A model generated the notes under the pieces. That model was not told the origin of the DNA. It made no database searches and saw only the letters and a program-made list of their open reading frames with translations. Shown in pieces: positions 51,150-51,340 of a stretch of 64,000 nt of DNA. Location: NCBI RefSeq assembly GCF_003790525.1, contig NZ_CP033635.1; one strand, written 5' to 3'. The position numbers and the translations under genes were made by a program. The stretch comes from Escherichia coli. GTDB taxonomy: Bacteria; Pseudomonadota; Gammaproteobacteria; Enterobacterales; Enterobacteriaceae. Position 1 is the stretch's first letter. The number at the start of each line of letters is the position of its first letter.

Positions 51150-51340
51150 CGCATCAGGTATGTAACGCCTGATGCGACGCTAACGCGTCTTATCAGGCCT
51201 ACACGCTGCGATTTTGTAGGCCGGATAAGCAAAGCGCATCCGGCATTCACCGCCTGATGCGACGCTGACGCGTCTTATCAGGCCTACACGCTGCGATTTT
51301 GTAGGCCGGATAAGCAAAGCGCATCCGGCACGAAGGAGTC
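51150..51340. repeat. tandem REP/BIME repeats between araA and araD
   Basis: Two near-identical ~85-bp direct copies of cgcctgatgcgacgct[a/g]acgcgtcttatcaggcctacacgctgcgattttgtaggccggataagcaaagcgcatccggca. Confidence 0.7.

Follow-up and report, generated by a model that had tools for sequence, protein, structure and literature searches.

The spacer between araA and araD of Escherichia coli is built largely of repeated palindromic DNA, which raises the question of what kind of element occupies this position within a classic sugar operon and whether the number of its copies matters to the host. The locus was analyzed in a window of 64,000 nt, the whole stretch of DNA under study, whose sequence is 100% identical to that of E. 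coli SMS-3-5 (phylogroup F; NC_010498.1). In the window, araB lies upstream of araA, and polB lies downstream of araD; all of these genes are encoded on the + strand and give full-length matches to NCBIfam equivalogs. The immediate surroundings of the spacer are as follows:

49642-51144, + strand: araA (L-arabinose isomerase), from the list of open reading frames, with a full-length match to the NCBIfam equivalog NF002795 (897.8 bits) and the RefSeq annotation of SMS-3-5
51145-51343: the araA-araD spacer, 199 nt
51333-51338, + strand: Shine-Dalgarno sequence of araD, AAGGAG, separated by 3 nt from the last REP and by 5 nt from the ATG
51344-52039, + strand: araD (L-ribulose-5-phosphate 4-epimerase), with a match to the equivalog TIGR00760 (447.5 bits) and the RefSeq annotation

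A direct-repeat search recovered two abutting copies of 85 nt (51150-51234 and 51235-51319; start-to-start spacing, 85), which are 93% identical (79/85), and Tandem Repeats Finder reports a repeat at 51166-51330 with a period of 85, 1.9 copies, 98% matches, no indels, and a score of 323. Both results agree with the preliminary description, which had claimed a tandem REP/BIME unit of about 85 bp in two copies, and the internal direct repeat that this claim entails is indeed present in the spacer. Five of the six mismatches between the copies fall within the first 17 nt, in which copy 1 is the decayed remnant of a truncated unit, and the remaining one, A versus G, is located in the Z2 REP loop (51181 versus 51266). 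The array as a whole (51150-51330) begins 6 nt past the stop codon of araA and ends 3 nt short of the Shine-Dalgarno sequence of araD. With these limits, most of the spacer is array (about 184 of the 199 nt), as had likewise been stated. A pattern for Z2-type REPs has two matches in the array and none in 100 shuffles of the window, which excludes chance as the origin of the array.

Each unit comprises a 36-nt REP of the Z2 type, a 13-nt linker, an inverted REP of the Y type, and a short inter-unit linker, and the 36-nt palindrome of the units reads GCCTGATGCGACGCT[A/G]ACGCGTCTTATCAGGCCTAC. The units match the Z2 and Y consensus sequences that we take to be those of Gilson, Bachellier, and Hofnung, on which these labels rest, and an orthologous array is present in K-12. 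Read from the araA side, the array consists of the following parts:

51150-51166, + strand: truncated, decayed array head, CGCATCAGGTATGTAAC, which aligns at 12 of 17 positions with the tail of a Y-type REP plus the inter-unit linker (CGCATCCGGCATTCACC)
51167-51202, + strand: first Z2-type REP, GCCTGATGCGACGCTAACGCGTCTTATCAGGCCTAC, a pattern match with 0 mismatches, supported by an inverted repeat and a hairpin, with its consensus orientation on the + strand and a terminal CTAC
51203-51215: short linker of unit 1, ACGCTGCGATTTT, 13 nt, joining the CTAC and GTAG feet (read from the sequence)
51216-51245, - strand: first Y-type REP, inverted (GTAGGCCGGATAAGCAAAGCGCATCCGGCA on the + strand, TGCCGGATGCGCTTTGCTTATCCGGCCTAC on the - strand), supported by inverted repeats and by a regular-expression match at 51220-51244 on the - strand that is followed by CTAC
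51246-51251: inter-unit linker TTCACC, from the unit-by-unit comparison
51252-51287, + strand: second Z2-type REP, GCCTGATGCGACGCTGACGCGTCTTATCAGGCCTAC, a pattern match with 0 mismatches, likewise supported by an inverted repeat and a hairpin
51288-51300: short linker in unit 2, with the same sequence as in unit 1
51301-51330, - strand: second Y-type REP, inverted and identical to the first, with a regular-expression match at 51305-51329 and an inverted repeat

At the position of the array head, E. albertii and Escherichia sp. MOD1-EC7003 have GCATCCGGCATTCAGC, the same sequence as at the inter-unit junction.

All four REPs are extragenic, lying between the stop codon of araA and the start codon of araD, and each of them is an imperfect palindrome with a CTAC or GTAG foot and an internal mismatch in the stem. 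A 601-nt query, run at megablast stringency, matched a median of 11 sites in each genome, which indicates dispersed copies. The REPs alternate between Z2 and inverted Y in two full units plus a truncated one, and the 13-nt linker corresponds to the “S”-type short linker in the definition of BIME-2, which comprises z2 and y REPs, a short linker, and tandem copies in strain-variable number (PMC3333891). The z2/y alternation, the short linker, and the tandem copies are also those of the BIME-2 family of Gilson, Bachellier, and Hofnung, from which no difference was found; with two units, the array in the window is small, whereas some loci carry more. A classification as BIME-1, which combines Z1 and Y in single copy with a long L linker containing an IHF site, was rejected because the array consists of Z2 and Y REPs, has a 13-nt linker, and is repeated in tandem. 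The array is thus very probably a BIME-2 that consists of two 85-bp units and, at the araA side, the truncated remainder of another, and represents the SMS-3-5 allele of a locus known to be polymorphic. The element family, the araD-A locus, and the variation of BIME copy number between strains are already published. For annotation, this means that the spacer (199 bp) consists of non-coding repeats and is neither a gene nor a small RNA.

Elsewhere in the window, there are two more single Z2-like REPs, one at 58277-58309 (+ strand) with a CTAC foot and one at 4900-4932 (- strand) without it. No BoxC-like element was found within the window.

An entirely different function of the spacer is raised by an Rfam search, whose only match is to naRNA4 (RF02564), on the Y/Z2 pair that spans the unit junction (51219-51284), with 59.6 bits (gathering score, 59.5); in addition, mechanical open reading frames of 45-73 amino acids cross the spacer on the - strand. 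An independent small RNA of the naRNA4 family, or a small protein, is nevertheless highly improbable as a product of the spacer. Since naRNA4 derives from the REP array REP325, any pair of Y and Z2 REPs will score, and the match reflects REP homology only; the two pairs are alike in sequence and structure but lie at different loci. Weaker matches occur on both strands and also in other alleles, with 42.4 bits on the - strand and 36.4 bits at a second site in the spacer of the window, and a consensus scan of 51145-51343 detected no promoter-like site and, on either strand, no terminator-like site. The open reading frames are made of REP sequence, and their length shifts with the number of units. 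The position of the naRNA4 match at the threshold means that automated annotation could mislabel ordinary BIME-2 units as a small RNA.

The spacer of K-12 MG1655, which consists of the same head, three 85-bp units, and the same junction with araD, has a length of 284 bp (reverse strand; end of the araD coding sequence, 66550; beginning of araA, 66835). The preliminary description had put the length of the spacer below that of K-12, and the spacer in the window is indeed shorter by exactly one 85-bp unit. The array closely resembles the “araD-A” BIME-2 of K-12 in its locus, its flanking genes, the 85-bp unit of Z2 and inverted Y, the head, and the junction with the ribosome-binding site of araD. 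It differs in the number of units (two versus three), in the inter-unit linker (including the preceding A, ATTCACC, which is shared with the B2 strains CFT073 and ST1193, versus ATTCAAC in K-12), and in a few point differences in the REP loops. The clade F genomes of SMS-3-5 and IAI39 belong to the REP-poorest, with fewer than 310 REPs compared with an average of about 546 in clade A (PMC3333891), which fits the smaller number of units at araA-araD than in K-12.

The allelic series in E. coli was resolved by dissecting 19 loci unit by unit, including that of K-12, and by a census with a query that consisted of the two flanks only and covered 59 complete chromosomes, taken at even rank steps among 5,398 matching genomes. 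Four length classes were obtained:

284 bp, three units: 22 of 59 chromosomes (37%); K-12, CFT073, ST1193, and, by length, Nissle
168 bp, one unit followed by a GC-rich palindromic element of about 54 nt: 19 of 59 (32%); TUM1223 and D8
199 bp, two units: 11 of 59 (19%); the window, strain 9000 (dissected), and, by length, O157:H7 strain DEC4E
114 bp, one unit: 7 of 59 (12%); Ecol_AZ161 and, by length, ST131 strains

The shares of the spacer classes were similar in a separate earlier sample of genomes, and no allele with zero or four units was seen among the sampled E. coli genomes. The variability in copy number that had been asserted for REP arrays in general is published for E. coli strains (PMC3333891) and is borne out at araA-araD by the presence of one to three units. 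The two-unit allele is an unremarkable instance of a type of variation between strains that has been documented before. Although repeats in tandem may collapse during assembly, it is exceedingly improbable that the two-unit state of SMS-3-5 is such an artefact: the array (170-255 bp) is shorter than one Sanger or long read, and the 199-bp class is found in 11 of the 59 complete genomes and represents at least five haplotypes, including those of O157:H7 strains.

Flanks that are only 2-6 of 560 nt apart are associated with one unit (AZ161), two units (UID2404240032 and C7), or three units (CFT073), and the flanks of WCHEC025985 (two units) and OW1E2 (three units) show 5 differences; K-12 is left out of this comparison, the sequence used for its locus covering only 266 nt of araA. 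The occurrence of one, two, or three units between near-identical flanks indicates several recent changes in copy number. The allele in the window resembles the three-unit allele of ST1193/KE41 minus its distinctive middle unit, and judging from these sequences, both gain and loss of a unit are possible relative to the three-unit alleles. The “duplication” of the preliminary description holds with respect to the tandem copies, but it also implies a direction: the allele may have lost as well as gained a unit, since three units are present in K-12, CFT073, and the outgroup Escherichia sp. MOD1-EC7003 and a single unit is present in E. albertii.

In the 168-bp spacer, an element of about 54 nt, TTTTCCCCCTCGCCCCTTYGGGGAGAGGGCCGGGGTGAGGGGAAACGACCTCTC (positions 581-634 of the TUM1223 locus; also in D8), takes the place of the second BIME unit and alters the bases just upstream of the Shine-Dalgarno sequence of araD. 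The element is dispersed, with a median of 15 and up to 31 places per genome, and is present in full length in 1,896 of 5,426 genomes. In both length and abundance it is compatible with the BoxC family (56 bp, 22-32 copies; PMC2267715), and it is called BoxC-like on these two grounds. Some complete genomes filed as “E. coli” (SYNB1934; 28 without a match) miss one or both junction flanks; at least one of them is an engineered derivative of Nissle, so that these are probably laboratory deletions of ara. In CFT073, a transposase gene of the IS200C family is located directly downstream of araD (locus positions 1812-1885), where other strains have polB. Transposases of the IS200/IS605 group are relatives of TnpA_REP.

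Two routes could change the number of units. One 85-bp period may be gained or lost when near-identical units misalign during replication slippage or unequal recombination; alternatively, units may be added or removed by cleavage and strand transfer by TnpA_REP (RAYT), activities that have been observed in vitro with oligonucleotides of the K-12 locus. Such oligonucleotides, B315 and B316 from the araD-A BIME of MG1655, are substrates for both cleavage and strand transfer by TnpA_REP (Ton-Hoang et al. 2012, PMC3333891). In vitro, the enzyme cuts these K-12 oligonucleotides between GGCC and TACA and in the linker, and its strand transfer assembles extra REPs (PMC3333891). The substrate features of TnpA_REP are present also in the window, where the REPs have a GTAG foot, a mismatch in the stem, and GGCCTACA at 51196-51203 and 51281-51288. 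The units resemble those of REPIN-RAYT systems in being inverted REP doublets with GTAG/CTAC feet and the GGCC-TACA motif, but differ from them in that the doublets in the window are amplified in tandem and in place.

Whether the array affects the operon depends in the first place on its behavior in the transcript. As RNA, the region has a predicted folding energy of -99.9 kcal/mol, compared with -71.8 +/- 4.6 kcal/mol for shuffled sequences (z = -6.1), and the predicted hairpins have energies of -21.7 kcal/mol for each Z2 REP and -14.3 kcal/mol for each Y REP. The array head and the start of the first Z2 REP can form an alternative 10-bp hairpin (51150-51176; -17.2 kcal/mol), which begins 6 nt past the araA stop codon and competes with the canonical Z2 REP, which begins 23 nt past it. 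The position of these hairpins bears on the idea that a REP near the stop codon lowers the translation of araA by stalling terminating ribosomes. It would draw on the rule, in the form summarised in bioRxiv 10.1101/2024.07.17.603846, that REPs act in this way when no more than 15 nt separate them from a stop codon, and the 10-bp hairpin lies at the appropriate distance. However, the canonical Z2 REP starts beyond this distance, the stop-proximal hairpin has to compete with it and is weaker, and the mechanism would be independent of the number of units, which makes an effect of this kind on araA quite doubtful.

The transcription context of the array is defined by a hairpin downstream of araD:

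52070-52102, + strand: hairpin and T-run after araD, AAACCAGGCTATAATCAAGCCTGGTTTTTTATT (read from the sequence)

The terminator scan lists this stem for the - strand only; on the + strand, the stem precedes TTTTTTATT. From its sequence and position, it is likely the true terminator of araBAD, and it may act bidirectionally between araD and polB. With a terminator-like hairpin only after araD and none in the spacer, the BIME lies within the araBAD transcription unit.

By analogy with other loci, we consider the chances about even that the role of the array is to form stable hairpins within the araBAD mRNA. The array would be transcribed as part of this mRNA, and its four REPs would form hairpins of -14 to -22 kcal/mol each, which would impede 3'->5' exonucleases and might partly attenuate transcription; the araB-araA segment would thereby be stabilised relative to araD. 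The classic case of a REP that stabilises mRNA within an operon is malE-malF. The array shares with such stabilisers (Higgins, Newbury) the intercistronic position in a sugar operon and the polycistronic transcript, but the hairpins in araA-araD are predicted, and whereas the effect on mRNA was measured at other loci, that on araBAD is proposed by analogy. Among the functions of REPs and BIMEs, mRNA stabilisation, attenuation, and the binding of gyrase and IHF are cited in PMC3333891 and PMC2267715. The influence on mRNA stability and polarity within araBAD that the preliminary description had suggested is a reasonable extrapolation from these functions. No measured role of REPs, or of the number of units, in araBAD expression was found in the open literature, so that the functional reading for araBAD rests on other loci.

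The array might instead be a partial transcription attenuator or a 3'-end-forming element that makes araD expression low in comparison with araB and araA. BIMEs are reported to attenuate transcription (Espeli et al. 2001, as cited in PMC2267715), and the corresponding spacers of Leclercia, Silvania, Atlantibacter, Mangrovibacter, and others contain a terminator-like signal, a GC hairpin with a run of 6-7 T behind it. Yet the spacer in the window has no terminator-like site, and its REPs are not followed by T-runs. Moreover, araD is essential to the pathway, and its loss leads to a toxic accumulation of ribulose-5-phosphate, which renders a role of the array in lowering araD expression unlikely.

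At the level of DNA, the BIME-2 array would provide sites for DNA gyrase. It is a tentative possibility, also by analogy, that the main role of the array is that of a high-affinity gyrase site, a topological insulator between the strongly inducible promoter region of araBAD and the downstream region, with the units setting the number of sites. The in vivo cleavage of BIME-2 by gyrase (Espeli & Boccard 1997) and the view of REPs as topological insulators that bind gyrase, Pol I, and IHF, both in the form cited in PMC3333891, are consistent with such a role. However, other genera carry single or terminator-like hairpins at araA-araD rather than BIME-2, so that a gyrase-related role would be specific to Escherichia.

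The predicted pairing probability of the Shine-Dalgarno sequence of araD is about 0.5 in alleles with one, two, and three units (partition function; seven alleles), so that copy number is not predicted to change the initiation of araD translation. The unchanged accessibility of the ribosome-binding site and the coexistence of frequent alleles point to near neutrality of copy number, and a phenotypic effect of carrying two rather than three units is probably small or absent.

The same evidence can be taken further, to an array that is itself a neutral or selfish repeat, with slippage or RAYT driving its copy number, palindromes attracting new palindromes, and araBAD being unaffected. This reading is a serious contender, although we place it short of even. 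It accommodates the coexistence of four length classes at 12-37% each, the different copy numbers between nearly identical flank haplotypes, the constant accessibility predicted for the ribosome-binding site of araD, and the replacement of unit 2 by a different dispersed element in one E. coli allele; also, BIMEs have been modelled as mobile and amplifiable (PMC3333891). It is at odds with the demonstrated effects of REPs at other loci and with the comparison across species, where no sampled species is without a structured element or has a spacer of less than 47 nt, and where the shortest spacers have about the size of one hairpin plus a ribosome-binding site. As a natural allelic series in a classic operon, with one, two, or three units or another element, the locus is well suited for tests of the effect of REP number on intra-operon mRNA stability, attenuation, and gyrase binding.

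The comparison across species is based on a degenerate DNA pattern for the N-terminus of AraD, which identified 77 loci in species-representative genomes and allowed 74 spacers to be measured; the list is not exhaustive, representatives of E. coli and S. enterica being absent. In these 74 species of Enterobacteriaceae, spacer length ranges from 47 to 284 nt and never falls below 47 nt, and a palindromic element is present in all 74 spacers. The median z score of folding is -3.8, and for 65 of the 74 spacers, folding of equal strength was reached by at most 5 of 100 dinucleotide shuffles. The elements differ among genera:

Escherichia (E. albertii, one unit; MOD1-EC7003, three units): Z2/Y BIME-2
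Citrobacter, Enterobacter, Lelliottia, and Kosakonia: REP of the type GCCCGGTGGCGC...ACCGGGCCTAC, alone or with a Y-like REP
Salmonella arizonae and C. koseri: Y/Y pair
Klebsiella, Kluyvera, Raoultella, and Phytobacter: BoxC-like elements
Buttiauxella and Cedecea: REP type of their own
Leclercia, Silvania, Atlantibacter, and Mangrovibacter: GC hairpin followed by 6-7 T

The elements at araA-araD come from several unrelated repeat families, and the persistence of a structured element at this site across species is the only mildly new point that emerges from the analysis. The pattern is compatible with selection for a hairpin and with a preferred target site of palindromic elements, which fit it equally well. 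That selection keeps a hairpin between araA and araD across Enterobacteriaceae, supplied by unrelated families, and that the one to three units in E. coli act as a rapidly mutating dial for the ratio of AraB and AraA to AraD expression is, taken together, improbable.

The GC hairpin with 6-7 T in Leclercia, the other genera of that group, and some others resembles an intrinsic terminator, although it is located inside the operon. Two further records stood out in the comparison across species. Contig CACSKA010000010.1, which is filed under Chryseobacterium sp. 18061, carries an enterobacterial araA-araD locus with a REP pair like that of Citrobacter amalonaticus, and “Citrobacter freundii M-21” has an Atlantibacter-type spacer; the two public records appear to be contaminated or mislabelled.
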